Notes under the pieces: generated by a model
Told to the model about the DNA's origin: nothing
Database searches by the model: none
What the model saw: the letters and a program-made list of their open reading frames with translations, nothing else
Source of the DNA: an uncultured Eubacteriales bacterium
GTDB lineage: Bacteria > Bacillota > Clostridia > Oscillospirales > Oscillospiraceae
Assembly: GCA_900546075.1 (NCBI GenBank)
Contig: URBH01000002.1
Span: 15,263-79,262 of the forward strand
Direction of reading: 5' to 3'
DNA length: 64,000 nucleotides
Program-made: the position numbers and the translations under genes
Shown here: one piece after another, positions 37,993-63,827 of the stretch
Numbering within the stretch: the stretch's first letter is position 1
Layout: every line of letters begins with the position of its first letter

Positions 37993-38188
37993 AAGATGGG
38001 ATGACAAACGGGATGAAACATGCGAAAACATTTTGGCAGGTCTTTGCTGATGACTAGAGAATGGCAATGTGATATAATCTTATCGTCCAAAGTGGACGAA
38101 ACGATCAGGCACTGTTTTGAGAGCTGATTCTGGCTCCTCAGAATGGTGCCTTTTGTCGTTTCATCACCAAGAAAGGAGGAAGTAGCAC

Positions 38189-38548: not shown

Positions 38549-38583
38549 GCGAGGCATAGGGAATATCCAGACTTACCAAGGAG

Positions 38584-41085: not shown

Positions 41086-41151
41086 CCAGATGGCCATGGT
41101 TGTGAATCTCACGATCATGGCCTTTTTTCATTCCAAAACGGAGGTGATTCC

Positions 41152-46246: not shown

Positions 46247-46319
46247 TCAACGGGCGTTGTACGCATTTTCCCGTTTATGCGTATAACGCCCAAAATAAGT
46301 ACAAGGAGGAATATAAATC

Positions 46320-46838: not shown

Positions 46839-46850
46839 GAGGAAAGCAAT

Positions 46851-47576: not shown

Positions 47577-47717
47577 ATTCCCGCAGCGACTTATCTACAC
47601 GCCCCGAAATGCGAAAAAGCTCTGTGTCCCAAGGAAAATCCCGTCTCCGAATCGATCCGATTTAGCCAAGAGGAGCAGGCATGGGGACGAAAATGCTCCA
47701 CTTCGAGGTAAGGAAAC

Positions 47718-48869
47718 ATGACCACCATAAAGCAGGATTCTCATGTGTACAGATTGCTCACGTTTCTTTCCTATGTTGGGGAGTACCCGCTGTGTTCTTT
47801 GCAGCTTTTCGGAAGCAAAGAGGTGTGGCGCAAATTGATCCACAAACATTCCCAACGGCAGGAGTATCGCATCCCCGGCCATGCCGACAAGATTATTTGC
47901 CGCCTTCTTCTGATTACAGGCAAAGGCAAAAGCAAATCTGTCCGCTTATCCAAGGGAGGGCAGAATATCCTTGAAATCGTCAATCCCAATGCCGCCCTTT
48001 ACTATACCCAGAATTACCTTCGCCATAATCATGCCGGTGAGGCCAAACGGTTGGATCGTTTCCATCGGGTGGCCGAATCCGCTGCCCTAATCAATCTGGC
48101 CGGATTTGAGACCTGCCCCTATAGGCTGCCCCAGCTTCAAATGGTCACAATCCGCAAGGTCGTTACGGATGCGCCTTCGTTCTATATCAGCAAAGAACTC
48201 AAGTATGTGGGCGATGATGATGTCAACAAAACCAGCTTCTCCAGAATAACAGGGGCTCTGTTCTGCCCCGGCGGATGTTACGCCGTGTACAACAGCCGTG
48301 ACTACCTGATGAACTGGAATGGCAGAGGCGAGGCAAAGGTCAGGCTCCACCTTACGGAGATTGCACGCATGAATGCAGATGTGGATGATGTACAGTCGGC
48401 TATTCTTTTGGGTACAGGGTACGAAATCGCTGAAATAACCTTGCGTACCCTATGGAAGACCAAACGGGCTGAAACAGAGTTTACCGTCATCTACGACCAT
48501 CTCCATTTCATCCCTCTGAATGGATTCGGCGTGCGCCTTCTGAAAATACTGACCACCCCAGACTGGAATGAAACATTGCTGGATCTTCTGTTCGATCCGA
48601 ATGACAGATCCTATGGTAAAGGCGTTTTCGAGTATGACGCCCGTGAGAACGGCATTTATTTGTTTTCATTTCTGGACAGCGACATCACCCGATTGAATCA
48701 TTTCATAGATGGGACAAAAGGAATCGAACGGGAAACAGCCGTTATCTGTTTCCCGGAACAAACCGCTTTTGTCCGGAATGTCGTTGGGCCGAAAGTCAGC
48801 ATTAAGACGGTAATAATGGATATGGTAGAAGATGCCCTCTGCCCGAAAGGCGGTGATGCAGATGAATGA
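47718..48869 (+). CDS. hypothetical ICE protein, translationally coupled to the T4CP (relaxase/accessory candidate)
   Basis: Its stop overlaps the T4CP start (ATGAATGA); no HUH motif recognised. Confidence 0.45.
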   Translation: MTTIKQDSHVYRLLTFLSYVGEYPLCSLQLFGSKEVWRKLIHKHSQRQEYRIPGHADKIICRLLLITGKGKSKSVRLSKGGQNILEIVNPNAALYYTQNYLRHNHAGEAKRLDRFHRVAESAALINLAGFETCPYRLPQLQMVTIRKVVTDAPSFYISKELKYVGDDDVNKTSFSRITGALFCPGGCYAVYNSRDYLMNWNGRGEAKVRLHLTEIARMNADVDDVQSAILLGTGYEIAEITLRTLWKTKRAETEFTVIYDHLHFIPLNGFGVRLLKILTTPDWNETLLDLLFDPNDRSYGKGVFEYDARENGIYLFSFLDSDITRLNHFIDGTKGIERETAVICFPEQTAFVRNVVGPKVSIKTVIMDMVEDALCPKGGDADE

Positions 48870-50727
48870 AAAACAGCGCAAGGCCGCAATTATAGTCGCC
48901 TCCATCCTCGGATGCGGGGCGCTTTTCTATCTTGGCGGTCTGCTGGGGCAGGTGTTTACCAACTATACTATCTGGATGGAGTCCGGCGGTATGTGGGGGC
49001 AAACACAGATTGCTGCCCCAGACTGGAATCCGGCTGTGTGCCTTCTGAATGCCTTCAGTTGGAACGGCGTCAAAGCGATCTTCCTGATCGTGGTCATCGG
49101 AGCCGGTATTGTGATCTATGTAAAGGTTCACGAGAAGTTCTCCCAAAACCAGTATGACGACCGGGGCTTCACCAAGAGCAAGGCCGGCACTTACGGTACC
49201 GCGGATTGGATGACAGAGAAGGAACTGAAATCCGTTTTGGAACTATCCACACCGGAAAGGGCTACCGGTATGATTCTTGGTGAGCGAAAAGGCCAGCTGG
49301 TATGTTTGCCGGAGAACACCCGCCTCAACCGTCACTGCGCCATCTTCGGCGCATCCGGCACCATGAAGTCCAGAGCCGTCATTCGCAATGCACTCTTTTC
49401 CATCATACGCCGAGGCGAGTCCGCTCTGATTGCGGATCCGAAATCAGAGATGTACAGCGATACTTCCGAGCTATTCCGAAAAAACGGGTATGAGGTCAAG
49501 GTGCTGAACTTGGTTGACCCCCTGCACGGTGACTCATGGAACTGCATGTCCGACCTGAACGGAAACACCATGATGGCTCAGGTCCTCACAAACGTCATTA
49601 TCGGCAACACAAGCAACGGCAAAAGCGATCATTTCTGGGATAACGGCGAGGCGAACCTGCTGAAAGCGCTGGTTCTCTACACCGATTTGGACAAGACGCT
49701 CCCGCCGGAGCGGAAGAATCTGGCCTATGTCTACCAGCTGCTGACCCACAATTCCGAGAAAACGCTGACCATCATGTTCGAGAAACTGCCGCCGGATCAT
49801 CCGGCCCGGGCGCCTTTCAATCTGTTTTCCCAGTCCAGTGATACGGTCAAATCCGGCATCATTCTCGGTCTGGGTACCAGATTGCAGGTACTCCAGAACG
49901 AAGCTGTGAAGCAGCTTGTCTCTTTCTCCGACATTGACCTTACCGCACCGGGCAGTCACAAATGCGCCTACTACATCATTCTCAGCGATCAGGAAACATC
50001 CATGGCATTCCTTTCCTCGCTTTTCTTTTCATTCCTGTTTATCAAGCTAACCCGCTTTGCAGACCTTTCCCCCGGCGGACGGTGTCCTGTACCCGTGAAT
50101 CTGATTCTGGACGAGTTCAACAACATCGGCCGGATCGGCGGCGCACCGGACGGCTCAGATTTCTGCCGTTCCCTGAGCGTCATCCGCTCCCGGGATATTC
50201 GGGTCATGCTCGCCGTTCAGAGCCTTGGTCAGCTTCAGAACCGGTATCCCAACAACCTTTGGTCCGAAATCATCGGCAACTGCGACATCCAGCTTATGCT
50301 CGGCTGTACGGATGACGTCACTGCGGATTACATATCTGACCGCAGCGGCGAAATGTGCATCGTTGTGGATTCTACCATGACCGTGAAGAAAACCGTTGCC
50401 GTCACGCAGGTGATTCCCCAGTACCGGGAAACACAGGGTCAGGGGAAGCGCAAGCTTCTCACCCCGGATGAAGTTCTTCGGCTTCCGCATGAACAAATGC
50501 TGGTCATTATCCGCGGTCAGAATCTACTGCTGCTGAACAAGTTTGACTATACCCGCCATCCCATGTCCAAGGAAATGGTCCGGGCTTCCATCATGGATTA
50601 CTGCCCGAGAACCAGTTATGCGCCCACACCCCAGACCGGTTCTGAAAATGAGCCGGACAAAAAGCCACAACGGGAGTCACGCGGCAGGAAACTCAGTCGC
50701 TCTGATACGCCACCCGTCGAGTTTTAA
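48862..50727 (+). CDS. type IV coupling protein (VirD4/TraG-like)
   Basis: N-terminal TM helices; Walker A GASGTMKS; Walker B LILDEF. Confidence 0.8.
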   Translation: MNEKQRKAAIIVASILGCGALFYLGGLLGQVFTNYTIWMESGGMWGQTQIAAPDWNPAVCLLNAFSWNGVKAIFLIVVIGAGIVIYVKVHEKFSQNQYDDRGFTKSKAGTYGTADWMTEKELKSVLELSTPERATGMILGERKGQLVCLPENTRLNRHCAIFGASGTMKSRAVIRNALFSIIRRGESALIADPKSEMYSDTSELFRKNGYEVKVLNLVDPLHGDSWNCMSDLNGNTMMAQVLTNVIIGNTSNGKSDHFWDNGEANLLKALVLYTDLDKTLPPERKNLAYVYQLLTHNSEKTLTIMFEKLPPDHPARAPFNLFSQSSDTVKSGIILGLGTRLQVLQNEAVKQLVSFSDIDLTAPGSHKCAYYIILSDQETSMAFLSSLFFSFLFIKLTRFADLSPGGRCPVPVNLILDEFNNIGRIGGAPDGSDFCRSLSVIRSRDIRVMLAVQSLGQLQNRYPNNLWSEIIGNCDIQLMLGCTDDVTADYISDRSGEMCIVVDSTMTVKKTVAVTQVIPQYRETQGQGKRKLLTPDEVLRLPHEQMLVIIRGQNLLLLNKFDYTRHPMSKEMVRASIMDYCPRTSYAPTPQTGSENEPDKKPQRESRGRKLSRSDTPPVEF

Positions 50728-50749
50728 TTTATCAAAAGGAGGAAAACCT

Positions 50750-51853
50750 ATGTCCACAACCGAAAACAGCCTACCGCCCGACGATATGCCCGTAACCCCA
50801 AACAGTGAACCGTCCCAGACCGATTCTGTCCTGAAAGTTCCGCCCCGGCATCAAGCATCCACCGGCGAGATCGCCGGAAATCCCGAAGGCAGCAACGAAG
50901 CTCCTCATTCCACCATATCTCCCCGGCAGGCAAGGCAACGGCTCAATGTTCCCATGCCCAATATGGAAGTTTTGGCGATTGATGACGCGCTCGGCATCCA
51001 AACTGAGATCGATAAGGCCAGAGATAAGTTTCTGGATCTGGTCGAGTCTCTGAAAACCGGCCGCTACCTTACCGATAAGATTCAGGGCGTTGAAAAGCAC
51101 TCTGGCTTGGGGGAACCCCGCGCCGTGATTTTCCACGGCGATTATAAGGTCATCATTATGGCTTCCATGATCGTCGATCTGCCCAAGGATTTACGGGGAC
51201 AGGATCCCTATGAAGTCTACCATTACCTGCTTACCAAGCGACTCGGATCTGAAATCGATTATGTTGTCAAAGGCATTGACCGCAATACCGGTCTGGCAGT
51301 CGGCAGCCGGAAGGATGCTATGGCCACGAAGCGCCGGCATTACTACCTGAATCAGACCCGTGACGGCACATACCGGATCTACGAAGGACTCTGCTGCGAA
51401 GCGAGAGTCATGTCCGTCATTCCATATGGCATTTTCGTGGATCTGTTTGGTATCGACGTTTACATTCCCTTGCGGGAGCTGAGCTATGTACGGCTTACCG
51501 ATGCCATGGGCTACTATGAACCCGGCGACCGGGTACTGGTGAAAGTCACCCAACTCAATCGGGATGACCCGGATGACATCCGTGTAGCTGCTTCCGTAAA
51601 ACAAGTTGCTGCCAATCCTGTGGATAAAGCTCTCGAAAAAATCGAGGTGAACAGCAACTATGCCGGTACCGTTACGCTGACGGACAGCACCGGTATCTTC
51701 GTGCGTCTGGATATGGGTGCTGAATGCAGATGTAGGTTCCCATATCGCGCAAGGCCGCCCAAGGGCGCCCGCGTAGTCGTGAAAATCGCAGGTGTCGATA
51801 TGGAGCAGAAGACTGTTTGGGGAAATATCACCTATGTCACCATTCCCAAATAA
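50750..51853 (+). CDS. protein with two S1-like OB-fold repeats
   Basis: GIFVDLFGIDVYIPLRELS...GDRVLVKV and GIFVRLDMGAE...GARVVVKI. Confidence 0.45.
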   Translation: MSTTENSLPPDDMPVTPNSEPSQTDSVLKVPPRHQASTGEIAGNPEGSNEAPHSTISPRQARQRLNVPMPNMEVLAIDDALGIQTEIDKARDKFLDLVESLKTGRYLTDKIQGVEKHSGLGEPRAVIFHGDYKVIIMASMIVDLPKDLRGQDPYEVYHYLLTKRLGSEIDYVVKGIDRNTGLAVGSRKDAMATKRRHYYLNQTRDGTYRIYEGLCCEARVMSVIPYGIFVDLFGIDVYIPLRELSYVRLTDAMGYYEPGDRVLVKVTQLNRDDPDDIRVAASVKQVAANPVDKALEKIEVNSNYAGTVTLTDSTGIFVRLDMGAECRCRFPYRARPPKGARVVVKIAGVDMEQKTVWGNITYVTIPK

Positions 51854-51873
51854 CTCTGAAAGAAGGTATCCTT

Positions 51874-52284
51874 ATGACCCAATGCGAACTGCCGAAAGAG
51901 GAATTGGTTCGCCGAAAGGAGCTGTCTGATAATACCCGGAAAATGATTTACAGCTTGCTGGATGTTGCTGCCGAGGATGAAACCTCGCTCATGACGACCT
52001 ACCGTGACTTTTACCTCCAGATCAGCTTCTCGGAGCTGCATCCGCTGATGGTTTTTTACCTCGCACGGCCTCTGGACGGAGAGAAAGCCATGCTGGCAGA
52101 TCGTTCCAACGAGATGAATCTGCGCAGCGTTCTGGGCAGTCATTCCGTCAACGAAAACTTCAGCTGCTATAACTATCGTGCGACGCACTGGCTTGATGCT
52201 CAGATGACCAAAACCAGATTTTTTGAAATTCTTGACCGGTGTGTTGATGAAGCTGTACGCGGGTATTATCAGCTCGCACACTGA
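51874..52284 (+). CDS. hypothetical ICE protein
   Basis: 136 aa from the ATG with GAAAGAAGG RBS. Confidence 0.4.
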   Translation: MTQCELPKEELVRRKELSDNTRKMIYSLLDVAAEDETSLMTTYRDFYLQISFSELHPLMVFYLARPLDGEKAMLADRSNEMNLRSVLGSHSVNENFSCYNYRATHWLDAQMTKTRFFEILDRCVDEAVRGYYQLAH

Positions 52285-52641
52285 GCACTGCAATTCCCTG
52301 CAATTTTGATTAGATCATGCAAGCAGGAGGAAATGTACATGTAAAAAAGCGATTGCTGCTCTATCCGCTGCCGTAATACTGGTTTTGGCCGTCTGCCGGT
52401 ATCCCAGACTGATTCCGAAACGACCGCAGGCGCCTCAGCCTTCCGTGAAGAGGGTCCTGAATTCCCGCAGATAAAGCCCGTACACCAGACTGATTCTGAC
52501 AGAACGCTCAGCGGAAAAGCCGGCCCGCCAAGCCAAGGCAGTCACTCAGGCAGTGACACCAATTCCACATTTGAAGTCAATGCCTCAGTTCTTTGGACTG
52601 GGGCCTTTTTCTACCCCAACTTGAGAAAGGATGACAACCAC

Positions 52642-55600
52642 ATGAAAACACCTTGTCAGCGGCTGCTTTCGTTGCTGCTGGTATTTGTGCTGGTGCTAAG
52701 CCTCATCCCGTCGGTTTATGCAGCCGACAATGATGAAAGTACCCCCACAGAACCGGAAGCCACGGAAACAACTGCATCCACCGAATCCCCCACGACCACA
52801 CCCCCTCAGTCAGATCCTTCTGAAGAAACAGAAGGCAGCTCCGCAGGCGCACCTGATTCCCAGCCTGACAATGAATACGGGATTGCGACAACCGCCAGCA
52901 CATCTGCAGGCGTCCTGCTGTTTGACTATGCCGACCACGGCAACTACACAACGGTGCTGAACAGTCAGGTCTCGGTTACTTATAAGCCCAACGGAACCGG
53001 TTCCGCGAAAACGGCATATATCAAAAATCTGGGCTGGCATTTCGCCCGGTACAATAACATTGCCTATGCAGACGATCCGCTGTACTGTATTGAGCCTTAC
53101 AAAAACTATGCCGCAAGTACATCCGGCAACTCTGTCGACCGGGATGTCACACTTACCGGCAGCGGCAGCACCGCCGGTGCAACCGCATGGTATTCCCTGC
53201 CGGAAGCAAGGCGAAAGGCCATTGGTCTGATTCTTCTTTACAGCGACGAAATGTGGGATCACTCCATCAGCGTCACCACGACGTACAAAGACGACAATCC
53301 CAACGTCCCGCTCAGAATCGCAACGCAGTTCCTCATTTACGAAATTGTGTGCGGCCTCCGGGATCCGGAAACATTCGTCCTGAATTCTGCCAACGAAAGC
53401 GGAACTGCAGGCAACATTTTCTACAACGCCGGTGCTGCCTCCGTATCTTACTTTGCTCCGAACTATAACACTCTGGTCAGCTGCGTTCAGGCTGCCCTGA
53501 AGATTCCGAGCTTCACCTCCAGCTCCAGCAGCTCCGCACCCACCATTACGCTGACCGGAGATGAAACCAGTGTCTATGACTCCAATGGAGTTCTGTCCGG
53601 GTTCAGCTTCACGAACGGCAATGGCGCAGAGTTCCGTAAATCCGGCAACACACTTTATATCTCCCAGACTGGCACCATCTCCGAGTCTACTGTCTTCAAA
53701 GCGACGAAGACGATTCCTTCTGCTGAAAACTCGGCCTATTCTCTTTGGTACATGTCCGGCTCCTCTTACCAGACAACGATCAACCTGTACCGTCCTGAGT
53801 CCGGTACGCTGAACGCCTATTTCAAATTAAAAGGTCAGGCGATTGGCAATCTGAGCCTGACGAAAACCACGGAAGATGGTAAGAACTTATCCGGATGGAA
53901 GTTTGGGATCTATTCCAACTCCGCCTGCACCAGCCTCGTTTCCGGCCCTCACACGACAGATTCCAGCGGCAGGATCTCCGTTACCGGTCTTACCGCTGGC
54001 ACCTATTATGTCAAAGAATTGGGGCATACCAATTCCGGTATTGAGGGCCTGTACGTATGCTCCAGCACAAATCCTCAGAAGGTTACGATTATCAACGGCA
54101 GCACGGCATCTGTCAGCTTCGTGAACAAGCTCAATACCGGCAGGCTGGCTTTGACAAAGAAAACGGATGACGGGTCGAATCTTTCCGGCTGGCGATTTGG
54201 CATTTATTCCGATTCCGGCTGCACGACTCTGGTTTCCGGCCCTCATACAACGGATGCCAACGGCAGCATTTCGGTCGACGGCATCACCCCGGGTACCTAC
54301 TATGTGAAAGAAATCGGCCACACGGATTCCTCTGTAAACGAGAAGTATGTGTGTTCCGGCACCAATCCGCAGAAAGTAACCATCGCCGGGGGTGCAGCAG
54401 CCTCTGTTACCTTCATCAATAAGATCAAAACCGGAAACTTCAGTCTGACCAAAACGACCAGCGATGGGCTGAATCTGGCAGGCTGGGAATTTGGAATCTA
54501 CTCCGATTCCGGTTGCACCACATTGGTGTCCGGTCCCCATACAACAGATTCCAAGGGTGCCATATCCGTTACCGGTCTGGAAATCGGCACCTACTATGTC
54601 AAGGAGCTTGGACACCGTGACGATGATATTGAGGCAATGTACAGCTGTGCAAGCGACAACCCCCAAAAGGTGACGATTACCTACGGTACCACCGCCTCTG
54701 TCAGCTTCCATAACTCTCTGGAACCCGGTTCCGTCAGACTGATCAAGCAGACCAATACAGGAAAGAACCTCTCCGGCTGGCAGATTGGGATCTATACGGA
54801 TGTCGCCTGCACGCAACCAATCGAAGGTTCCCCCTTTACAACAGGCAAAGACGGCACCATTGTGATAGATGGCTTGTCTCCCCAGAAGCTGTATGCAAAG
54901 GAAATTGCGGTGGATGATCCCTACTGGGTCTGTGATTCTTCTGTCAAGGCCATCACCGTCAAAGCGAATGCGACGGTATCTGTGACCTTCAGCAATACCC
55001 ACAATGGCGATCTTCGCGTAAAAAAGAATGCCGTTGACGGAAGCCCCGAAGGGTGGAATTTCCATATTTTGGATGCCAATCGGGAGCTGGTAGAAACCAT
55101 TACAACCGGTGAGGACGGCTATGCAGCATCCAGTAAGCTCGAACCCGGCACGTATTACGTCGTTGAGATTCACGACAGAGATGAAACATACTGGACTTAC
55201 GATGCTGTTGTCGAAAAGCAGGTTACAGTTACTGCCGGTACACAGTCCGAAGTCGAATACACCAACGAACAATTTGGCATTCTGGTTTTCTGTAAGACGA
55301 CGAACACTGGCAATCAGCTCGGCGGCTGGACGTTCCGCGTTCAGGATTCGGACGGGAATGTCGTGGGCGACTATACCACCGACGAAACGGGGTATGCCAG
55401 CACCGGCAAACTCAAGCCCGGCAGCTATACCGTTCTGGAGCTTTCCAACGGTGACGACTACTGGAACTGCGAGCTGGGATACCACTCCGTCACGATCATT
55501 GCAGGCAAGGCCACAGAAGATGCATGGCATAACCGTGAGCAGGGATTGGGCTGGTTCCATAAGTCTACCAACACCGGCGAGTCCCTTGAAGGCTGGGAGA

Positions 55601-56568
55601 TCACCATTTACTCCGATAAAGAATGTACCCAAAAGGTGACTACCGTTACCACAAATGCCGACGGCAAGGTCGGTATATATCTTGACCCCGGCATCTATTA
55701 TGCCAGAGAATCCGGAGACACCGAAGGCCGCTTTGAAAATGAGTACTGGCTTGTGGATGAGTCCATTAAAGAGTTTGAAATTCTGCCCCACAAAGATGTG
55801 GATATCACCTTTGTCAACACCCAGTACGGCAAAATCAAAGTCATAAAGTCCATGCCCTCCAGCGGCTCTCTTGAGGGATGGACCTTCATCGTCAGAGACA
55901 TCAACGGTGACGAAATAAAAGGCTCGCCCTTCATCACAGACGCATCCGGTCTCATTGTCAGTGAGAACCTCTATCCTGGTACTTATGCCGTTGAAGAGGT
56001 AATCCCCGATGACAGTCCTTACATCTGCGTTTCGGAAAATCCCCAATCCGTCACTGTCGTCCAAGGGAGGACTGCTGAGGTACGCTTCACAAATTCTCTC
56101 CGCTCCGGCAAGATTGCAATTCGGAAGGTCGATACCACAGGTGAGCCTCTGGCTGGCGCTGAGTTCCTGCTGGAATGGTCCGTGGACGGTACCTCTTGGC
56201 TACCCGTTGTTTATTCCAACTCCGGTTATGCGAAAGAAGGCACCTGCTCCAGCGAGGGCCTCACAGATGGCCGCCTCATCTCGGATAAAACCGGTCTGGT
56301 AGAATTCACCGGTCTGCATCCGGAACGCCTTTACCGTCTGACCGAAACTGCCGCACCCGATGGTTTCCAGCTGCTTGCGGATACCGCCTATGAAGGCGGG
56401 CTGCCCGACGATAAGGAGTACACCGTTGATTTGACCGTCGTAAATGTACGTACCTATGAGCTTCCCGAAACCGGCTCCAAGTCTCTGGTACTCATGCCCA
56501 TCGCATTGATTCTGGCCTGCAGCCTGTGCGGTGCGATTCTGTTCGTAACCAAGCGTAAGAAGCAGTAA
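52642..56568 (+). CDS. LPXTG-anchored surface adhesin: signal peptide + N-terminal thioester domain (TED) + 8-10 SpaA/CnaB-type repeat domains + LPETG sorting signal
   Basis: YCIEPY (thioester Cys) and IATQFLIYE (thioester Gln) motifs; repeated ...LSGW.FGIYSDSGCTTLVSGPHTTD..G.ISV.GL..GTYYVKE... modules; C-terminal YELPETGS + TM + KRKKQ. Confidence 0.75.
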   Translation: MKTPCQRLLSLLLVFVLVLSLIPSVYAADNDESTPTEPEATETTASTESPTTTPPQSDPSEETEGSSAGAPDSQPDNEYGIATTASTSAGVLLFDYADHGNYTTVLNSQVSVTYKPNGTGSAKTAYIKNLGWHFARYNNIAYADDPLYCIEPYKNYAASTSGNSVDRDVTLTGSGSTAGATAWYSLPEARRKAIGLILLYSDEMWDHSISVTTTYKDDNPNVPLRIATQFLIYEIVCGLRDPETFVLNSANESGTAGNIFYNAGAASVSYFAPNYNTLVSCVQAALKIPSFTSSSSSSAPTITLTGDETSVYDSNGVLSGFSFTNGNGAEFRKSGNTLYISQTGTISESTVFKATKTIPSAENSAYSLWYMSGSSYQTTINLYRPESGTLNAYFKLKGQAIGNLSLTKTTEDGKNLSGWKFGIYSNSACTSLVSGPHTTDSSGRISVTGLTAGTYYVKELGHTNSGIEGLYVCSSTNPQKVTIINGSTASVSFVNKLNTGRLALTKKTDDGSNLSGWRFGIYSDSGCTTLVSGPHTTDANGSISVDGITPGTYYVKEIGHTDSSVNEKYVCSGTNPQKVTIAGGAAASVTFINKIKTGNFSLTKTTSDGLNLAGWEFGIYSDSGCTTLVSGPHTTDSKGAISVTGLEIGTYYVKELGHRDDDIEAMYSCASDNPQKVTITYGTTASVSFHNSLEPGSVRLIKQTNTGKNLSGWQIGIYTDVACTQPIEGSPFTTGKDGTIVIDGLSPQKLYAKEIAVDDPYWVCDSSVKAITVKANATVSVTFSNTHNGDLRVKKNAVDGSPEGWNFHILDANRELVETITTGEDGYAASSKLEPGTYYVVEIHDRDETYWTYDAVVEKQVTVTAGTQSEVEYTNEQFGILVFCKTTNTGNQLGGWTFRVQDSDGNVVGDYTTDETGYASTGKLKPGSYTVLELSNGDDYWNCELGYHSVTIIAGKATEDAWHNREQGLGWFHKSTNTGESLEGWEITIYSDKECTQKVTTVTTNADGKVGIYLDPGIYYARESGDTEGRFENEYWLVDESIKEFEILPHKDVDITFVNTQYGKIKVIKSMPSSGSLEGWTFIVRDINGDEIKGSPFITDASGLIVSENLYPGTYAVEEVIPDDSPYICVSENPQSVTVVQGRTAEVRFTNSLRSGKIAIRKVDTTGEPLAGAEFLLEWSVDGTSWLPVVYSNSGYAKEGTCSSEGLTDGRLISDKTGLVEFTGLHPERLYRLTETAAPDGFQLLADTAYEGGLPDDKEYTVDLTVVNVRTYELPETGSKSLVLMPIALILACSLCGAILFVTKRKKQ

Positions 56569-56599
56569 CGGGAGAAAATGAATATGCGTTTTTTCTACT

Positions 56600-56633
56600 G
56601 GCGCCGAGGTCCCCCCGGCGCCTTTTCTTTTTC
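56600..56633 (+). terminator. rho-independent terminator after the adhesin gene
   Basis: GGCGCCGaggtccccCGGCGCC followed by TTTTCTTTTT. Confidence 0.55.
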
Positions 56634-56692
56634 CAAAATGGATGCCAACCAACAAACTACTTTTTCAACACTGAAAGGATGTATTAACCATT

Positions 56693-58798
56693 ATGAAGTC
56701 TGTCAAAAAGATTCTGGCCATGTGCCTTGCGATCATGATGATCGTTTCCTGTATCCCCGCCGCCCATGCTGCTGATGTCCCCAACACAGCCATTGACCTC
56801 GATGCCAAGGGCAGCCTTACTCTGTATAAATACGACCTTACAAACGCGGAAAAGGATGGTGTGTGGGATTCCTCCTACGTCTCCACCGGCGTATACGACG
56901 AGAACGTCAACAAAACTCTGGGCGAGTCCAAACGTGCCGGCGATAATGATAACAGCGCTGATCTTGGCAATGGCGAGGTTAGCTACGGTTATGCCGTGAA
57001 GGGCGTCGAGTTCACATACCTGCGCGTCGGTGACATTGTTCAGTACACCGAGTCCGCCAACGATGGTGATGCCGATAACCATATTGAAATTCTGTATGGC
57101 ATCGACAAGGCTGTCGGTGCAGACCTGCTGACTGTTTTGGGGCTGGAAAATGGCGCTGATCGTTATACCAATGCTGACCATCTGGATAACGCGAAATACT
57201 ACTATCAGAGCGACGTTCTGATTGACGCTCTGGCACAGGCTCTGCAGAACAATTCCACCACCGTTAAGAATGCACTGGAAACCTACGTTGCCAACAATGG
57301 CGGTACCGCAATGCCCCTGACCGGTGCCTACGGTAAGTCTCAGGCCAACAATCTGGATCTTGGCCTTTATATCATTGCCGAGACCAAGTGTCCTGAAATG
57401 GTCACTTCCACCTGCGCCCCCTTCTTCCTCAGCATCCCAATGAGTCCCGTTTCCGGTAGCAATGCCACCGATGGCAATACCCGTTGGCTCTACGATGTGA
57501 CCATTTATCCGAAAAACCTGACCGGCATTCCTACCCTCACCAAAAGCCTGCGGGAAAATGTGAACGACACCGGCAAACACAAGGGCGCCACCAATGACGT
57601 CACCGATGGCTATGCCAACACCGGAACCGCTTCTGACGGCGACGTCATCGACTACCAGATCCTCTCCACGCTCGCCTCCATTACCAGCAAAAGTACCTAC
57701 TACAGCGAGCTGGCGTTTATTGATACATTGTCTCCCGGTCTGAGCTATAACAAGAACGATATTCTCATTGAGTTCTTCTCCGATGCCGCCTGCACCAATT
57801 TGCTGGATAGCTGGGATGAGTCTAAGGGCTACTTCAAGGTATCCTATTCCAGCACCTCCAAGAACGAGTCCGTTATGACCATTGAAATGACCGCTCAGGG
57901 CCTGAATGAAATCAACACCAACAAGCGCGTTTACACCGGTGCCTCCATGATAAACTCCGGTTACTCCGACTGCACCGTCCGTATCACTTACAAGGCTACC
58001 ATGCACTCTGATGATTCCGTTGTTTACGGCAATTCCGGTAATCCCAACGAGGTCGTCATGCTTTGGAAGCGTTCCTCCCAGGATTACTACGACACGCTGG
58101 TTGACGATGCGCACATTTTCACCTATGCCGTAGAGCTGGTAAAGCTCTTCTCCGACGCCAAGGGCGACTATGCCAACGTTGAATTCATCATGCAGAATGA
58201 TTCCGATAAGTACTATGTCAAGGCGGAGCTGAACAAAGACGAGGGTGTCTACTATGTGGTCGGCCATGTAGCCGACAAGAAAGACGCTACGCACTTCATT
58301 CCCGTCAAGAACGCTGACGGTGAGGGGCTGGTCATTGTCAAGGGATTGGAGGACGATGCTTATACTGTAACTGAAGTCCGAACCGATAATGGCTATACGC
58401 TGCTCAAGGACAACATCAAAATCGTCATTTCTCAGGTCGAAGCCACGGAACTGTGTGACATCTACTCCTCCGACCTGCTGGGGCTGGTTCAGAACGATCC
58501 CCGGTATGCAGCCATTATCAAAGACACCGGCAACCTCAAGAATATGCCTCAGCCCCATCTGGAGCACCACCTGCTGACCGCATCCGCCACTGTCGACAGC
58601 AAGAATGTCAACATGCTGGACGATGACGGCAGTGCAAATGCCATCGTTCCTCTGAAAGTCATCAATACCCGCGGTTTTGATTTGCCGCAGACCGGCGATT
58701 CCGGCACTATGGCATTCAGTATCATCGGCATCCTGCTGATGGCCTGCGCAGCCGTTGTCATCGTGATGGTTTTCCGGAAGAAGTGTAATTCCAACTAA
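56693..58798 (+). CDS. sortase-assembled major pilin (backbone subunit)
   Basis: Signal peptide; pilin motif WLYDVTIYPKN; E-box-like YTVTEVRTDNGYTL; C-terminal LPQTG + TM + RKK. Confidence 0.7.
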   Translation: MKSVKKILAMCLAIMMIVSCIPAAHAADVPNTAIDLDAKGSLTLYKYDLTNAEKDGVWDSSYVSTGVYDENVNKTLGESKRAGDNDNSADLGNGEVSYGYAVKGVEFTYLRVGDIVQYTESANDGDADNHIEILYGIDKAVGADLLTVLGLENGADRYTNADHLDNAKYYYQSDVLIDALAQALQNNSTTVKNALETYVANNGGTAMPLTGAYGKSQANNLDLGLYIIAETKCPEMVTSTCAPFFLSIPMSPVSGSNATDGNTRWLYDVTIYPKNLTGIPTLTKSLRENVNDTGKHKGATNDVTDGYANTGTASDGDVIDYQILSTLASITSKSTYYSELAFIDTLSPGLSYNKNDILIEFFSDAACTNLLDSWDESKGYFKVSYSSTSKNESVMTIEMTAQGLNEINTNKRVYTGASMINSGYSDCTVRITYKATMHSDDSVVYGNSGNPNEVVMLWKRSSQDYYDTLVDDAHIFTYAVELVKLFSDAKGDYANVEFIMQNDSDKYYVKAELNKDEGVYYVVGHVADKKDATHFIPVKNADGEGLVIVKGLEDDAYTVTEVRTDNGYTLLKDNIKIVISQVEATELCDIYSSDLLGLVQNDPRYAAIIKDTGNLKNMPQPHLEHHLLTASATVDSKNVNMLDDDGSANAIVPLKVINTRGFDLPQTGDSGTMAFSIIGILLMACAAVVIVMVFRKKCNSN

Positions 58799-58807
58799 GC
58801 GCAGATA

Positions 58808-58842
58808 ACGGAGGGGAACCAGCGTCCCCTCCGTTTCCGTCC
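58808..58842 (+). terminator. hairpin terminator (weak U-tract)
   Basis: ACGGAGGGGAaccagcgTCCCCTCCGT followed by TTCCGT. Confidence 0.4.
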
Positions 58843-58923
58843 TATGGTTCATAAGCTATAACTGATGAACTGGCTTTTCCTTCCCGTCTCTACACCTATA
58901 AAGGAAAGGATTTTGACATCTTT

Positions 58924-59889
58924 ATGCCGAAAAAAGTTCCGAAATCCATCCGTCTCTCTTCCAAAGCGCGTAAGAAGCTCACAATCGCCTGCGCCATACT
59001 GGTATTTTTGTTTGCCCTCGGGATCACTTTGTATCCGCTGATCAGCAACTGGTATAACAGCCGGCACCAGTCTGAGATCCATACACAGTATCTGGAAGTG
59101 CTGCGGCAGGTCGACAACTCTGAGATCATTCTGGCCGAACGTTATGCAAATGAGTATAACACAGCCATCGCCCCCGGCACACAGCTCAGTGATGCATTCT
59201 CCAAAGAGGCACTGCTGTGGGCATCTGAGGACTACGAGAACCTGTTGAATCTGGCAGGTGATGGGATCATGGGCTATATTGAAATTCCCATGATTCAGGT
59301 AAATCTGCCAATCTATCATGGTACTGATTCAAAAACTCTGGATATCGGCGTTGGCCATCTTCTTGGCAGTTCTCTGCCGGTCGGCGGCAAAGGTACGCAC
59401 ACCGTCCTGACGGGGCATTCCGGTATGGCCACACAGAAGATGTTTTCCGATCTGGACAAACTGGAGCTGGGCGATGTGTTCTACCTGCAGGTATTGGACG
59501 AAACCCTTGCTTATCAGGTGGATGCCATCCATACCGTCCTGCCTTACGATACCTCTTTCCTCGGAATCACCGAGGGTGAGGACTATTGCACGCTGGTCAC
59601 CTGCACCCCCTTTGGCATCAATACCCACCGCCTGCTCGTTCGCGGGACACGCATCCCCTACGAGGAGGCCGAAGTCATCACCGCAGAGAAACTGCAGGTG
59701 GAAGATACCCCCGCATCCACTTGGGAACAGCAGTATATCAAAGGCATCCTGCTTGGCATCGCAACTGTTGCTGTAATTTTAGTCTTCTGCATCTGGGGCA
59801 GCCATTGCCAGAAGCGCAGACGCCGTAGAAAAACACGTCAGCGTGAGCAATTCCGGCCGAGAAAGCGAGGCAAGTATGAAAAAGCTTAA
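58924..59889 (+). CDS. class C (pilus-polymerising) sortase
   Basis: N-terminal TM; conserved catalytic His (VLTGHSG); active site TLVTCTP; C-terminal TM plus basic tail. Confidence 0.8.
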   Translation: MPKKVPKSIRLSSKARKKLTIACAILVFLFALGITLYPLISNWYNSRHQSEIHTQYLEVLRQVDNSEIILAERYANEYNTAIAPGTQLSDAFSKEALLWASEDYENLLNLAGDGIMGYIEIPMIQVNLPIYHGTDSKTLDIGVGHLLGSSLPVGGKGTHTVLTGHSGMATQKMFSDLDKLELGDVFYLQVLDETLAYQVDAIHTVLPYDTSFLGITEGEDYCTLVTCTPFGINTHRLLVRGTRIPYEEAEVITAEKLQVEDTPASTWEQQYIKGILLGIATVAVILVFCIWGSHCQKRRRRRKTRQREQFRPRKRGKYEKA

Positions 59890-60649
59890 ATACCTTGTAC
59901 TTATCCTTATGATCCTTGTTTTTCTTTCCGGTCTGGGAGTTCTCCTATACCCATATATTCGAGGATATCTGGTCGACCGGCAAATCGAACGGACCGCTGA
60001 GGAATTCCTGAGTCGCGTTGAAACTGACCCAATTTCACCATACCCATCTGAAAGTCAGTTGGATCAGGATACGCCTTCAGATTCGCCGGAACCTACCGAG
60101 CCGGATACCTATACTGACTTATGGCGGGATATGGTCGATTACAATAAAGAAATCTATATCAATGGCCAAAAAGGGCTGGATTGCAAACTTGCGTATGAAG
60201 ACCCCAGTTTCGTTCTGGCTGACTACGGTCTGGAAAGCGAAGTCTTTGCCGTGATTTCTATCCCCGCCTTGGAGCTGGAGATGCCGGTGTTTCTGGGCGC
60301 AAACTACCGTCACATGGCCGATGGTGCTGCTCTTTTAGGTCAAACCAGTATCCCCATCGGAGGAAAGAACACAAATTGTATCATTGCCGGCCATCGGGGA
60401 TGGGGCGGCGCCTCTTACTTCCGGTATGTGGATAAGCTGCAGCCCGGCGACGAGGTCATCATTACGAACCTCTGGGAAACGCTCCAGTATAGGGTGGCCG
60501 AAATCCAGATTATTCAGCCAAACGAAGTTGAGCAGATCCTGATCAAGCCCGGTCAGGAACTTGTCACACTGTTGACCTGCCACCCTTACGCATCCGGAGG
60601 CAGGCAGCGATATCTTGTGATCTGTGAAAGGGTAAATGAAAATAATTAA
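59876..60649 (+). CDS. second class C sortase
   Basis: ATG 59876 after GAGG; N-terminal TM; conserved catalytic His (IIAGHRG); active site LVTLLTCHP. Confidence 0.75.
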   Translation: MKKLKYLVLILMILVFLSGLGVLLYPYIRGYLVDRQIERTAEEFLSRVETDPISPYPSESQLDQDTPSDSPEPTEPDTYTDLWRDMVDYNKEIYINGQKGLDCKLAYEDPSFVLADYGLESEVFAVISIPALELEMPVFLGANYRHMADGAALLGQTSIPIGGKNTNCIIAGHRGWGGASYFRYVDKLQPGDEVIITNLWETLQYRVAEIQIIQPNEVEQILIKPGQELVTLLTCHPYASGGRQRYLVICERVNENN

Positions 60650-61352: not shown

Positions 61353-61631
61353 TTGACTATCTGAAACCCGGGTGCTACAATGCAAGTGTGGCAGGGGCTT
61401 GCACCCAGGCTTTCGATCCGCCGGAAGAGCTCCCGGCGTTTGACGCACCCGGGTGGGTAGCGGAATCGTTACGGACTTAGCGTTGTTATAGCGGTCCCCA
61501 ATGGTGCAAGTCAATTGAACATGATTACCGGAAGGTTGCTTACTTTAGGCCTCGGTCGGATCCGACCCCATCGAGCGTGCTTTAGTATTGCTTCCTTCCG
61601 GTATTTTTTAATTTTACGGAGGTATATCACA
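61353..61631 (+). promoter_or_regulatory. TTGACT-17-TACAAT promoter + ~240 nt structured leader ending in an intrinsic terminator (61528..61609) = riboswitch/attenuator candidate
   Basis: Promoter at 61353..61381; hairpins CGCCGGaagagctcCCGGCG and GGTCGGATCCGACC; terminator CCGGAAGG...CCTTCCGG + TATTTTTT immediately before the RBS of the 61632 gene. Confidence 0.45.
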
Positions 61632-62102
61632 ATGAAACCTAAAAACAAACGAAAGGGAATCGACAGAACCGCCCCTCGCTGTCCCTACTGCGGCAGTCAT
61701 ACCATTCTAAGAAGTGCCGATGGCATCTACCGGGAAAATGCGCGCAACGACATGCTCTACGTGTGCAAGAACTACCCTGTGTGCGACTCCTATGTCCGTG
61801 TCCAGCGCGGCACCAAGATACCCCTTGGAACTGTGGCGAACCGGGAACTGCGGGAGCTGCGGGCGGAAGCGCACCGCCAGTTCGACAAATTATACAAGCA
61901 CGGCTATATGAGCAAGCACGATGCCTACCAGTGGCTCGGAGGTATCCTTAGTGTTCCCGCGAAACAGGCACACATTGCCCAGCTCAGTCTATTGTCCTGT
62001 AATCTGGTCATTCGGGAAGCCAAGAAGCAGGTCAATTGGTACCATATGCGTAAAATGGCCGCTCTACAGCAGACTCAGGAAGGGGATGTGAAGGCGTCAT
62101 GA
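61632..62102 (+). CDS. zinc-ribbon protein (CPYC...C..C)
   Basis: GGAGG RBS; CPYCGS...CKNYPVC motif; 4-nt overlap with the sigma factor gene. Confidence 0.5.
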   Translation: MKPKNKRKGIDRTAPRCPYCGSHTILRSADGIYRENARNDMLYVCKNYPVCDSYVRVQRGTKIPLGTVANRELRELRAEAHRQFDKLYKHGYMSKHDAYQWLGGILSVPAKQAHIAQLSLLSCNLVIREAKKQVNWYHMRKMAALQQTQEGDVKAS

Positions 62103-62641
62103 CACCGGAGCAGCAGAAAATCGTGGAAGCGAATATGGGTCTGGTGGGAAAGGTCATCAAGGAGAAGGTCCGTCGACTCGGTCAGCCCGGGACCCCCAGT
62201 TATGAGGATCTGTTCCAAACCGGTTGTGTCGGTCTGTGCAAAGCTGCCATGACAGACAAGGGCGGCTGCTTCTCGACCTATGCGTATAGACTGATCTGGA
62301 ACGAGATCTGCGATGAATTGATCCGAAACACCAGACTGGTTCTGAACGAGCAGTCTACAGATGCAGTCGACGTTCTTTCCGAAGCAGCGTCGGCGCATCC
62401 GGATCCTTTGACGACCTCCGACCTGCGTCATACCATTGGGCAGGCAAAAGTGAAGGCTCAGGGAGGAACCGCAAAAGGCATCCAGTGCCTTGAGTTGACG
62501 GTTCAGGGATACACCAGCAAGGAGATCGGCACCATCGTAGGTGCCGATCCCGGTACTGTCCGAATGTGGATGACCAGAGCAAGGAAGTACCTCAAGGGTC
62601 TTCCAGAACTGCGGGCATTGGGATACCCGGAGGCCGTATGA
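62099..62641 (+). CDS. sigma-70 family (ECF-like) RNA polymerase sigma factor
   Basis: Region 2 (YEDLFQTGCVGLCKA...YAYRLIWNEI) and region 4 HTH (YTSKEIGTIVGADPGTVRMWMTRARKYL). Confidence 0.7.
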   Translation: MTPEQQKIVEANMGLVGKVIKEKVRRLGQPGTPSYEDLFQTGCVGLCKAAMTDKGGCFSTYAYRLIWNEICDELIRNTRLVLNEQSTDAVDVLSEAASAHPDPLTTSDLRHTIGQAKVKAQGGTAKGIQCLELTVQGYTSKEIGTIVGADPGTVRMWMTRARKYLKGLPELRALGYPEAV

Positions 62642-63102
62642 GAAAATCAATATGGCAGAGGGTCAAGCCATGGTGTGTACCACTGGTCTTGACCCTCTTA
62701 ATATATATCATGCTGCGCTCTGTTTTTCTGATTGGCTATGTTCCTTCCGCTTCCATGGAACCCACTTTGCATGAGGGGAGCTTCATCCTCGGCCTGAGGC
62801 TATATAGCGAGCCGAAAGTGGGAGACATCATCATTTTTGAGAAAGATGGTGTTTTGCTGGTAAAGCGAATTGCTGCCTGCCCGGGTGATTCGGTAGATCT
62901 GTCACAGCTGGAATATATGATGTCCACCCCAATCCCGGTTTGGGAGGAGGCAGTGCTGACCGTACCGGATGGGTGTTATTTCGTTCTCGGCGACAACGCC
63001 CAGAATTCCTGGGACTCACGCTATTGGGAGCAGCCGTATGTTCCCAGCCAGCAGATTGTTGCAAAGCTGATAAATTCATTTTACCATTGTTCAGACAAAT
63101 AG
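62638..63102 (+). CDS. signal peptidase I (S26)
   Basis: N-terminal TM, SMEPTL catalytic Ser box, VLGDNAQNSWDSRYW box; GGAGG RBS; start overlaps the sigma gene stop. Confidence 0.8.
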   Translation: MRKSIWQRVKPWCVPLVLTLLIYIMLRSVFLIGYVPSASMEPTLHEGSFILGLRLYSEPKVGDIIIFEKDGVLLVKRIAACPGDSVDLSQLEYMMSTPIPVWEEAVLTVPDGCYFVLGDNAQNSWDSRYWEQPYVPSQQIVAKLINSFYHCSDK

Positions 63103-63113: not shown

Positions 63114-63827
63114 TTACGCATCATTTATGCTGTTAAGAGCATAGTATAGTTTCCCATCGAAATCCTTTAATTCAAAACGCTGAAACATCTCATTGCCATC
63201 AACATCTTCGTAGTTGACATTGAACCATGTAGGAACACCTTGGTCATTACGCTCGTATTCGTCAGTCAACACTGCCATCTGCTTTGGCCATTTCTTCGCA
63301 TCAACTGAGTCGTAATATGCGCAGTGAACGTATTGTATCTCATTGCACTTCAGAAGTGGAGTGATGTACTTGTCAAATACAATCATATGCTTAATGGGAA
63401 ATCTATTGACATTCTCAACACTAATTTTCACATTTTTGTGAATGGGGTTCGTAGCTTTATCATATAAGCTAAATGCCTCAGCCGTTCCATCCAACTGCAT
63501 ATCTATAGAAACTATTTTAACAGAGAAAATTGGCTGTATCTCTTTCTTCCTATTTTCAGCATCCTTTCTTTCATTCAATTCACTATAATAAATGCTCTGA
63601 AATATCGCAATCAAGCTTACAATTACAGTACCAATAAAAGACAGATAAGCTCCTAAAAATGAGAGCCAATCACTCTTTTCTAGGCCTGTCCCAACAGGGA
63701 AAATACCATTCTCCTTGAATACAAGGTAGATAATGACATAGACGATAGCAGAAAAAGCAACTATAGCAATAATAGGCATCTTGTATTTTGACCAAAATGT
63801 TAGCTTTTTTCTTTTTTGTTTACTCAT
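63114..63827 (-). CDS. hypothetical 2-TM membrane protein, AT-rich cargo gene
   Basis: ~40% GC against ~58% flanking; two N-terminal TM helices then a ~140 aa soluble domain; convergent with the pilus/sigma operon. Confidence 0.5.
   Translation of the reverse strand: MSKQKRKKLTFWSKYKMPIIAIVAFSAIVYVIIYLVFKENGIFPVGTGLEKSDWLSFLGAYLSFIGTVIVSLIAIFQSIYYSELNERKDAENRKKEIQPIFSVKIVSIDMQLDGTAEAFSLYDKATNPIHKNVKISVENVNRFPIKHMIVFDKYITPLLKCNEIQYVHCAYYDSVDAKKWPKQMAVLTDEYERNDQGVPTWFNVNYEDVDGNEMFQRFELKDFDGKLYYALNSINDA

Follow-up and report, generated by a model that had tools for sequence, protein, structure and literature searches.

A putative thioester-tipped sortase pilus encoded among type IV secretion genes of an integrated element from gut Oscillospiraceae

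This analysis concerns a four-gene cassette for a sortase-assembled pilus on a 64,000-nt stretch of DNA (the window; positions 15,263 to 79,262 of contig URBH01000002.1, GenBank assembly GCA_900546075.1) from an uncultured Eubacteriales bacterium of the Oscillospiraceae. Between window positions 52642 and 60649 lie four intact genes, which encode an LPETG adhesin of 1308 amino acids, an LPQTG major pilin of 701 amino acids and two class C sortases, directly downstream of the genes for a VirB4-like ATPase and a CD1115-family coupling protein of a type IV secretion system (T4SS) (Table 1). All positions given below are window coordinates; the four pilus genes are on the + strand, which is also the strand of every window gene from VirB4 through signal peptidase. 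Judged from profile scores far above their thresholds and from motifs that are invariant in homologues down to 22-45% identity, chance is ruled out as an explanation for the cassette, and the four genes very probably specify a pilus with a thioester domain at its tip. The sequence features listed in a first-pass annotation of the window were all recovered at their positions, yet one of them, the glutamine assigned to the thioester bond, required reinterpretation.

The Pilus Gene Cassette

By profiles and motifs, the 701-amino-acid protein, which had been picked out for its pilin motif, is classed as a SpaH/EbpB-type major pilin, an assignment on which NCBIfam, Pfam and the alignment of homologues agree. 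It exceeds the cut-offs of the curated models NF033902 (108.7 vs. 95), TIGR04226 for the isopeptide D2 domain (31.5 vs. 30) and PF16555 (32.3 vs. 23.1), its Pfam domains are GramPos_pilinD1, SpaA and Gram_pos_anchor, and its LPQTG motif is followed by a hydrophobic stretch and RKK. A profile built from the pilin and 19 homologues matches the solved pilins Spa2 (7woi, 6e-18), SpaD (4hss, 4e-13) and FimP (3uxf), with the segment W.YDV..YPKN aligned residue for residue. The YPKN motif with its canonical Lys274 and the Glu of the E-box (YTVTEVRTDNGY, YTVTE) do not vary (17/17) in an alignment with 16 complete or nearly complete homologues of other species at 45-94% identity, and LPxTG is absent from one (16/17).

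The adhesin gene begins with an ATG preceded by a GAAAGGA ribosome-binding site; adhesin residue numbers are nevertheless counted here from an in-frame TTG (1315 amino acids), which adds 7 residues. The protein consists of a signal peptide, an acidic Thr/Pro/Ser-rich segment of ~50 amino acids, a class II thioester head of ~320 residues, nine stalk modules and the LPETG motif, after which follow a hydrophobic, transmembrane segment and a KRKK tail. The stalk, for which the first-pass annotation had counted at least eight SpaA/CnaB-like repeats, comprises nine modules of this type according to Pfam (PF17802, E 8e-90, 9 stretches), each with a Lys...Glu...Asn signature (GxΦxΦxK ... YYxxE ... ΦxFxN). 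Tandem Repeats Finder detected no DNA-level tandem repeats in the adhesin and pilin genes; the stalk repeats have diverged at the nucleotide level. Reading of the adhesin sequence revealed no YPK pilin motif, while an E-box of the pilin type, YRLTETAAPDGF, is found in the last module. Each of stalk modules one to four also contains two Cys residues spaced 41-44 residues apart (436/480, 534/578, 632/676 and 730/771), which could form intradomain disulfides in addition to the isopeptide signature and would be unusual in a surface protein of a strict anaerobe.

Both sortases, proposed as class C enzymes on their TLxTC motifs, exceed the cut-off of the class C model NF033745 and score far below those of the class A, B, D and E models (NCBIfam). 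Their genes overlap by 14 nt, while the proteins are only 26% identical, with the catalytic motifs TLVTC, TGH and RLLVRG in sortase 1 and TLLTC, AGH and RYLVICER in sortase 2. Sortase 1 has an N-terminal transmembrane segment and a C-terminal one with a basic tail. Candidate lid segments of the DP[FWY] type, located approximately and by eye, are SDAF in sortase 1 and EDPSF in sortase 2.

Table 1. Features of the pilus cassette and of the surrounding element, in window coordinates
Feature	Position	Strand	Basis or remark
lysS	33308-34801		chromosomal neighbour of the island
Left element part	35312-43176	+	includes orf357 and an ArpU/DUF1492-like regulator besides the three genes below
Xis-like DUF6462/DUF5348 protein	35312-35824	+	
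VirB6/TrbL-like membrane protein, 833 aa	38584-41085	+	TrbL_4 match weak
NlpC/P60 cell-wall hydrolase	41152-43176	+	47.4 vs. 23
T4SS genes	43628-52284	+	gaps -8 to 141 nt; order VirB4, DUF5697, DUF6100, orf383, coupling protein, S1 protein, orf136
VirB4-like ATPase	43628-46246	+	Pfam P-loop_TraG 70.9 vs. 25.8, passes; CD1110 equivalog 278 vs. 325, below cut-off
CD1115-family coupling protein	48862-50727	+	NF045973, 373 bits vs. cut-off 250
S1-domain protein	50750-51853	+	
orf136	51874-52284	+	
Spacer, 357 nt	52285-52641		between orf136 and adhesin gene
Terminator-like hairpin	52582-52604	+	9-10 bp stem, 3-nt loop, then CUUUUUCU; 37 nt before adhesin ATG
Alternative in-frame TTG of adhesin	52621	+	1315 aa
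Putative pilus tip adhesin, 1308 aa	52642-56568	+	motifs, Pfam; same 1308-aa product called in public assemblies
Class II thioester domain, residues 84-407	52870-53841	+	fold, profile, Cys conservation
YCIEPY Cys156	53086-53088	+	predicted thioester Cys
TQFLIYE Gln236	53326-53328	+	accessory TQxxΦW motif
Gln384	53770-53772	+	predicted thioester Gln
First four stalk modules, residues 436-771	53926-54933	+	Cys pairs
LPETG	56461-56475	+	
Major (shaft) pilin, 701 aa, SpaH/EbpB family	56693-58798	+	NCBIfam, Pfam, solved-pilin alignment
IYPKN Lys274	57512-57514	+	
E-box Glu561	58373-58375	+	
LPQTG	58682-58696	+	
Class C sortase 1, 321 aa	58924-59889	+	NF033745, 260.3 vs. 160; Pfam Sortase 2e-27
TLVTC Cys227	59602-59604	+	
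Class C sortase 2, 257 aa from ATG	59876-60649	+	NF033745, 169.5 vs. 160; alternative GTG start at 59843
TLLTC Cys	60578-60580	+	
orf195, secreted/membrane protein, 195 aa	60695-61282	+	signal peptide, acidic middle, C-terminal transmembrane segment, no LPXTG
DUF3268 RNA motif (Rfam RF02966)	61390-61512	+	98.1 bits vs. gathering 65.3, E 3e-19
DUF3268 zinc-finger protein	61632-62102	+	Pfam DUF3268, 7e-52; upstream RNA motif
ECF-like sigma-70 factor	62099-62641	+	TIGR02937, 53.6 vs. 42.9
Signal peptidase I	62638-63102	+	TIGR02227, 91.7 vs. 47
orf237	63114-63827		right of signal peptidase gene

The Thioester Head of the Adhesin

That the N-terminal part of the adhesin is a thioester domain, as the first-pass annotation had suggested, is supported by fold, profile and Cys conservation. 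A HMMER search of 1.84 billion representative proteins returned 298 relatives of the head, and the Cys156 of the YCIE motif is invariant in 63/63 non-redundant relatives at identities down to 22%. Eight of ten distant relatives (22-35% identity) match the Pfam thioester domain TED (PF08341), seven of them above threshold, hence membership in the thioester-domain family holds via these intermediate relatives. The TED fold, including the class II β-sandwich (model residues 225-321), was found in the predicted structure model of the head, in which Cys156 sits in strand 71-73. Comparison of the head with known thioester proteins gave values of 14.1 for SaTIE (224/237 residues aligned), 11.6 for PnTIE, 11.3 for FNE, 11.2 for CpTIE, 10.8 for Cpa, 9.4 for SfbI, 9.2 for BaTIE and 7.9 for EfmTIE86. 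The sequence profile of the head likewise matches SaTIE (E 4e-7), placing YCIEP opposite FCIEP and the TQ helix opposite ATQMLIWE, and also covers a segment of the class II β-sandwich insert. The head is assigned to class II because of the near-complete coverage of SaTIE and the presence of the β-sandwich.

The glutamine of TQFLIYE had been proposed as the partner of Cys156, on the argument that the two motifs are spaced as expected; this is the wrong residue, and the spacing argument was right only by accident. TQFLIYE represents the accessory TQxxΦW motif, which adjoins the thioester bond but whose Gln is not bond-forming (Miller et al., 2018, PMC6194298); Tyr replaces the Trp in the subfamily studied here (TQFLIY), while distant relatives have TQxxΦW. 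The bond-forming Gln of class II domains belongs to a weak ΦQζΦΦ motif far along the sequence, 171-204 residues after the Cys in solved domains, and known pairs are Cys296/Gln467 in SaTIE, Cys88/Gln292 in EfmTIE86 (PMC6194298) and Cys68/Gln256 in TIEpLS20 (PMC8092201). The 63-sequence alignment contains exactly two near-invariant glutamines (98%), namely Gln236 of the TQ motif and Gln384, the latter located in SSYQTTINL, where the last β-hairpin of the model begins, 228 residues after Cys156. From this conservation pattern, the thioester is predicted to link Cys156 to Gln384, and Gln236 is ruled out as the bond-forming residue by the published work (PMC6194298) together with the conservation of Gln384. 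As a separate observation, a 584-amino-acid database protein (P0265) has a thioester domain at its N-terminus and also a TraG/VirB4 P-loop domain; a frameshift or a wrong gene call probably lies behind this fusion, which nevertheless indicates that both genes are adjacent in another element.

Distribution and Synteny

The comparative set, drawn from one genome per GTDB species, comprised 23 loci with pilin homologues of 45-94% identity, which were searched with the window proteins and with iterated profiles. Almost all belong to Oscillospiraceae or related Clostridia living in human and animal guts. Wherever the contig reaches far enough, the genes come in the order adhesin, pilin, sortase, sortase. 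No locus with sequence left upstream of the pilin gene departs from adhesin before pilin, and of the 16 loci whose sequence continues past the pilin, 14 have a pair of sortase genes. Thioester relatives of the adhesin head at 33-38% identity are also followed by a GramPos_pilinD1 pilin, and one of them lies among plasmid-type genes (RepA_N, ParB, LPD28). The head is a thioester domain in at least 13 loci.

At least 15 of the 18 informative loci have a gene for a type IV coupling protein (T4CP), VirB4 or NlpC/P60 hydrolase no more than 10 kb from the cassette. In L025, L027 and L030 no T4SS gene was detected; these three have other mobile-element hallmarks or too little flanking sequence, L025 containing a large polyvalent protein and L027 two large serine recombinases and a recombinase-domain fragment. 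Four gene orders can be distinguished. In type A, found in the window, L009 and L022, and in the upstream part of L018 and L019 before the contig ends, the T4CP, S1-domain protein and orf136 genes precede the cassette, and the zinc-finger protein, sigma factor and signal peptidase genes follow it. In type B (L010 and L016), the cassette lies directly after the T4CP gene and upstream of VirB4 and hydrolase, while in type C (L015, the upstream part of L029 before the contig ends, and probably L013 and L014) it stands between VirB4 and hydrolase, with the T4CP gene further upstream. Type D has the cassette first, followed by T4CP and then by VirB4 and hydrolase, as in L026; L017, L023, L024 and L028 show a T4CP gene after the cassette. 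The coupling proteins of types B-D are only 25-30% identical to that of the window, and together with the four gene orders this means that the pilus genes sit between core T4SS genes of long-diverged operons. Such persistent embedding in divergent T4SS operons makes the cassette look less like cargo.

The type A architecture is also present in the cultured isolate Vescimonas fastidiosa MM35 (record pMM35_02), where it was annotated independently by PGAP. Genes for a PrgI-family protein, DUF5697, DUF6100, a CD1115-family VirD4-like protein and the S1 protein are followed there by a SpaA pilin-related protein, a SpaH/EbpB major pilin and two class C sortases; past the cassette come an ATP-binding protein gene, a hypothetical gene and then the zinc-finger protein and sigma factor, with an S26 peptidase and a tyrosine integrase ~30 kb further on.

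At least 1000 contigs, in 4495 blocks of the assembly collection, carry the 701-amino-acid pilin in identical form, and NCBI labels it as from Oscillospiraceae metagenome-assembled genomes. Most of the identical copies share the right flank of the window, hence they appear to stem from one common host species. The pilin family is much wider, with matches to more than 7800 clusters at 90% identity and many singletons at 74-78% identity.

The Surrounding Element

Just past lysS, the GC content drops from ~0.59 to ~0.52, and such a low-GC island beside lysS supports integration. The location of the cassette after T4SS genes, as claimed in the first-pass annotation, was confirmed, in that it lies inside a Gram-positive T4SS gene cluster on this island. 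The designation of the island as an integrative and conjugative element (ICE) can be followed in part: a T4SS gene cluster on an integrated island is evident, whereas a complete ICE is not, as neither a relaxase nor an integrase was recognized by Pfam, NCBIfam or PHROGs in 35-64 kb, nor in the 10 kb to the right. In relatives, a tyrosine integrase lies beside the signal peptidase gene. Direct or inverted repeats of at least 11 nt common to the junctions at 34.7-35.4 kb and 62.9-64 kb were not found, so the ends of the element are undefined. Among the plasmids of PLSDB, megablast gave no match to 52285-60649. The five proteins orf357, orf383, orf136, orf195 and orf237 obtained no function from Pfam, NCBIfam or PHROGs; orf195 is kept after the sortases in L009 and L022, which have the same gene order.

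Two genes separate the coupling protein from the pilus genes, namely those of the S1 protein (367 amino acids, a single S1 RNA-binding domain) and orf136 (136 amino acids). The S1 protein occupies the same position in Vescimonas and in the type A loci and is an unexpected member of a T4SS operon. The hairpin within the spacer upstream of the adhesin gene is the strongest terminator-like site in 47-64 kb (folding z = -1.8); promoter-like and terminator-like sites in this interval are not enriched over shuffled sequence. A known riboswitch in the spacer, such as one for c-di-GMP, was considered and is unsupported, as Rfam gave no match in 52200-52700. The spacer also contains a signal-peptide-like reading frame (KKAIAALSAAVILVLAVC...) that has no usable start codon and is possibly a decayed small lipoprotein gene.

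Downstream of the pilus genes, the genes for the zinc-finger protein, sigma factor and signal peptidase I overlap, and this trio also follows the cassette in L009 and L022; it may regulate and process the secreted pilus proteins, a link that we infer. The DUF3268 RNA motif, a candidate cis-regulatory RNA, lies in a 349-nt gap with the pilus genes on one side and the sigma-factor trio on the other. To the right of the signal peptidase gene come orf237, indexed in 11620 blocks, a Fic-domain protein and a GH53/ABC-transporter galactan-utilization locus (L034, 1-10000). These right-flank genes have a GC content of 0.43-0.57, below the 0.59 of window positions 1-33 kb, and may either be carried by the same element as cargo or form an island of their own. 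In another locus (L005), homology to the window ends at ~63464 and is followed by a Tn916-type Int/Xis module.

Proposed Assembly and Function of the Pilus

In the proposed mechanism, both LPXTG proteins would be exported by Sec, and the signal peptidase I of the element may process them. A class C sortase would then cleave the adhesin between Thr and Gly of LPETG and join the Thr to Lys274 in the YPKN motif of the major pilin, thereby placing the adhesin at the tip; since the adhesin lacks a pilin-motif Lys, it cannot accept a further subunit beyond itself, as is characteristic of tip subunits. As the pilin has both the Lys and a sorting signal, it can polymerize, and the shaft would be built by repeated joining of the LPQTG Thr of one pilin to Lys274 of another, before the finished fibre is transferred to the cell wall. 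The two sortase paralogues may divide tip incorporation and shaft polymerization between them, as in other multi-sortase pili. At the tip, carried on nine isopeptide-type modules, the Cys156-Gln384 thioester would bind covalently to a target surface by reacting with an amine there. The complete heterodimeric pilus of tip and shaft envisaged in the first-pass annotation is thus borne out in its gene architecture, while tip position and polymerization are deduced from gene content and synteny.

We give an even chance to the reading in which this two-subunit pilus is part of the conjugation module of the integrated element and its tip is directed at the recipient cell. The recipient is favored as the target because the cassette is embedded among divergent T4SS genes and because a class II thioester adhesin is needed for conjugation of pLS20 in liquid, where a Cys mutant is inactive (PMC8092201). 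A role of the pilus in mating-pair formation, which draws on synteny and on the analogy with TIEpLS20, is put forward tentatively, at a little under an even chance.

Several points weigh against this overall reading of a thioester-tipped mating pilus. The known plasmid-borne sortase pili, namely those of the enterococcal bee and pilA loci, are regarded as colonization or virulence cargo, and so is the pilus locus of Clostridium perfringens pNetB. The head domain of the window adhesin itself reaches only 21.0 bits against PF08341, 1 bit below the gathering score of 22, and the adhesin matches none of the NCBIfam thioester models at E <= 0.01, so the profile check proposed earlier was not passed directly. 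Neither a housekeeping sortase nor a relaxase or integrase was identified in the window. The spacer and its terminator-like hairpin part the T4SS genes from the pilus genes, and the two may therefore be transcribed separately. The adhesins of L022-L025 have no Pfam head domain, although stalk, pilin and sortases are conserved, which suggests that heads are swapped on a conserved pilus chassis; such head replacement in related elements would also be expected of host- or substrate-directed adhesins under diversifying selection. (The adhesin genes concerned lie at 5785-9864 of L022, 5727-9818 of L023, 5504-8824 of L024 and 5307-7988 of L025.) Lastly, deletion derivatives occupy the same chromosomal site: L004 and L007 have lost VirB4 through T4CP and the thioester head and encode a chimeric SpaA protein of 849-886 amino acids, and L036 has lost nearly everything up to the pilin, its Xis-like gene abutting a 997-amino-acid pilin fusion. 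All three nonetheless retain the sortase pair, and L004 and L007 also an intact pilin.

In the main rival reading, the pilus is real and thioester-tipped but is merely carried by the element, binding host mucus or epithelium, dietary fibre or other members of the community to the advantage of the bacterium that harbours it in the gut, so that proximity to T4SS genes reflects where cargo inserts and not what it does. We regard this as somewhat unlikely. It would agree with the fact that every experimentally studied thioester pilus adhesin or class I adhesin binds host molecules, as in the case of Cpa and of SfbI with fibrinogen (PMC4450167, PMC5817068), and that thioester protein, pilin and class C sortase of pNetB-NE10 are encoded in a virulence-plasmid region with no T4SS genes in the 21 kb shown. 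Extreme pilin diversity, with thousands of 90% clusters, combined with swapped adhesin heads is typical of surface antigens and adhesins, retention of pilin and sortases by variants that lost the T4SS ATPases is in line with a function outside conjugation, and the hairpin-bearing spacer suggests separate transcription. However, a position between VirB4 and hydrolase, or between T4CP and VirB4, in independently diverged operons is not expected of cargo, and the association with T4SS genes persists in at least 15 of 18 loci despite T4CPs of 25-30% identity. The head, moreover, is of class II, which is linked to conjugative plasmids and acts in pLS20 mating, and attachment to hosts and to mating partners are not exclusive roles, as PrgB of pCF10 serves both (PMC8092201).

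It is improbable that adhesin and pilin form two separate structures, in which the adhesin would be a wall-anchored fibrillar adhesin like BaTIE, SaTIE and TIEpLS20, the pilin would be homopolymeric or carry another tip, and one sortase would be dedicated to each substrate. The class II TIE proteins studied so far are indeed single wall-anchored proteins and not pilus subunits (PMC6194298, PMC8092201), nine stalk modules would make the adhesin a long fibre by itself, and two sortases of 26% identity together with LPETG in one substrate and LPQTG in the other could mean two pathways. Yet both sortases belong, by curated model, to class C, the polymerizing class, the adjacency of adhesin and pilin is kept even at 33% head identity, and the last adhesin module bears the pilin-type E-box described above. 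Heterodimeric pili with a large tip adhesin are also an established architecture, as in BcpA/BcpB of Bacillus cereus, and separate structures would alter the anatomy of the system but probably not its function. Least of all do we expect a decaying remnant, i.e., an element immobilized in its host species whose pilus genes are no longer expressed or functional: the missing integrase, relaxase and flanking repeats and the several deletion derivatives at the same site in public assemblies would fit, but none of the four pilus and of the T4SS open reading frames of the window is disrupted and no catalytic or motif residue is missing, the identical pilin recurs on at least 1000 contigs, conserved homologues exist in many species, and orf357 and orf383 could include an unrecognized relaxase.

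Implications

Little is understood of the way in which Gram-positive donors locate recipients and keep hold of them, and reviews describe their conjugation systems as having surface adhesins but no pili (PMC12857230, PMC5817068). According to the mating-pilus hypothesis, gut Oscillospiraceae mount a class II mating adhesin of the pLS20 type on a covalently polymerized pilus. By extension, and with slightly more reserve, Gram-positive conjugation may use pili in at least one large lineage: a widespread family of Oscillospiraceae conjugative elements would build a sortase-polymerized fibre, tipped with a class II thioester domain and integral to the T4SS, that extends to recipient cells and bonds to them covalently. 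If true, this fibre would be a counterpart, though not a homologue, of the Gram-negative conjugative pilus and would contradict the view that there are no Gram-positive conjugative pili (PMC12857230, PMC5817068). As the element is very common in human gut metagenomes, it could have a bearing on how genes spread between abundant, hard-to-culture anaerobes, and the hypothesis is testable because the cultured V. fastidiosa MM35 carries the same module. Should the pilus instead be colonization cargo, it would still be a horizontally spread covalent adhesin of commensals, an ordinary result.

Comparison with Known Systems

The novelty claimed in the first-pass annotation was overstated, as thioester-tipped pili (Cpa of Streptococcus pyogenes), the C. 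perfringens pNetB-NE10 locus and the annotation of V. fastidiosa already exist. Class II conjugation adhesins and plasmid-borne sortase pili are likewise known, and the genes were named correctly by automatic annotation in Vescimonas; the parts are ordinary, whereas their combination and T4SS context are not described in the literature searched. A literature search found neither a sortase-pilus operon as a conserved embedded part of Gram-positive T4SS operons nor a class II thioester adhesin on a sortase pilus, which is weak evidence in both cases since subscription journals were mostly outside its reach. The sortase module of the 'Hodor' megaplasmid (PMC12934698) was considered as a precedent and set aside, since its giant S-layer/MBG proteins and class A/B sortases mark it as a different system.

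The S. pyogenes FCT pilus (Cpa/Spy0125 tip, Spy0128 shaft, SrtC and SipA) is a thioester-tipped sortase pilus as well, but the thioester domains of Cpa are of class I and inserted in an isopeptide domain, whereas the window head is of class II. The FCT region is a chromosomal pathogenicity locus with a basal pilin, FctB, while the window cassette lies in a T4SS cluster and shows no basal pilin; in contrast to SipA, the window signal peptidase keeps the catalytic Ser and Lys boxes and passes the equivalog model. The window pilin shares the D1 domain and W.YDV..YPKN with Spa2, SpaD and FimP and also has an E-box, LPXTG and the isopeptide D2 signature, yet at 701 amino acids it is ~200 residues longer, with the extra sequence before D1 and inside the last domain, and outside the motif region similarity is low.

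Sortase pili on conjugative plasmids are represented by the bee locus of Enterococcus faecalis and by pilA on Enterococcus faecium megaplasmids. In C. perfringens, the conjugative plasmid pNetB-NE10 encodes a SpaH/EbpB pilin and a class C sortase that are preceded by a thioester surface protein (L039, NC_019688.1, 7368-12075), but the 'Cys-Gln thioester bond-forming surface protein' is fragmented, as are SpaA sequences, so that the locus appears partly decayed. It has one sortase, its pilin is 23% identical to that of the window, and it lies among cargo genes (GGDEF/diguanylate-cyclase, a large NPCBM protein). To our knowledge, none of the pNetB, bee and pilA loci has been described as part of a T4SS operon.

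Of the class II proteins, SaTIE, BaTIE and EfmTIE86 are single wall-anchored proteins, whereas the window adhesin, only ~17% identical to SaTIE in sequence, is followed by a pilin and two class C sortases. TIEpLS20, encoded by gene 34 of Bacillus subtilis pLS20, has no sorting signal and involves neither a sortase, which pLS20 lacks, nor a pilin, in contrast to the LPETG motif, pilin and two sortases found here. The accepted Gram-positive substitute for a conjugative pilus is the aggregation-substance type of mating adhesin, such as PrgB of pCF10 and its relatives, which are LPXTG proteins encoded in a Gram-positive T4SS operon and promote mating-pair formation (PMC12857230); unlike the proposed window pilus, PrgB is a single wall-anchored protein that is not polymerized, has no thioester and binds non-covalently through a lectin-like polymer-adhesin domain.

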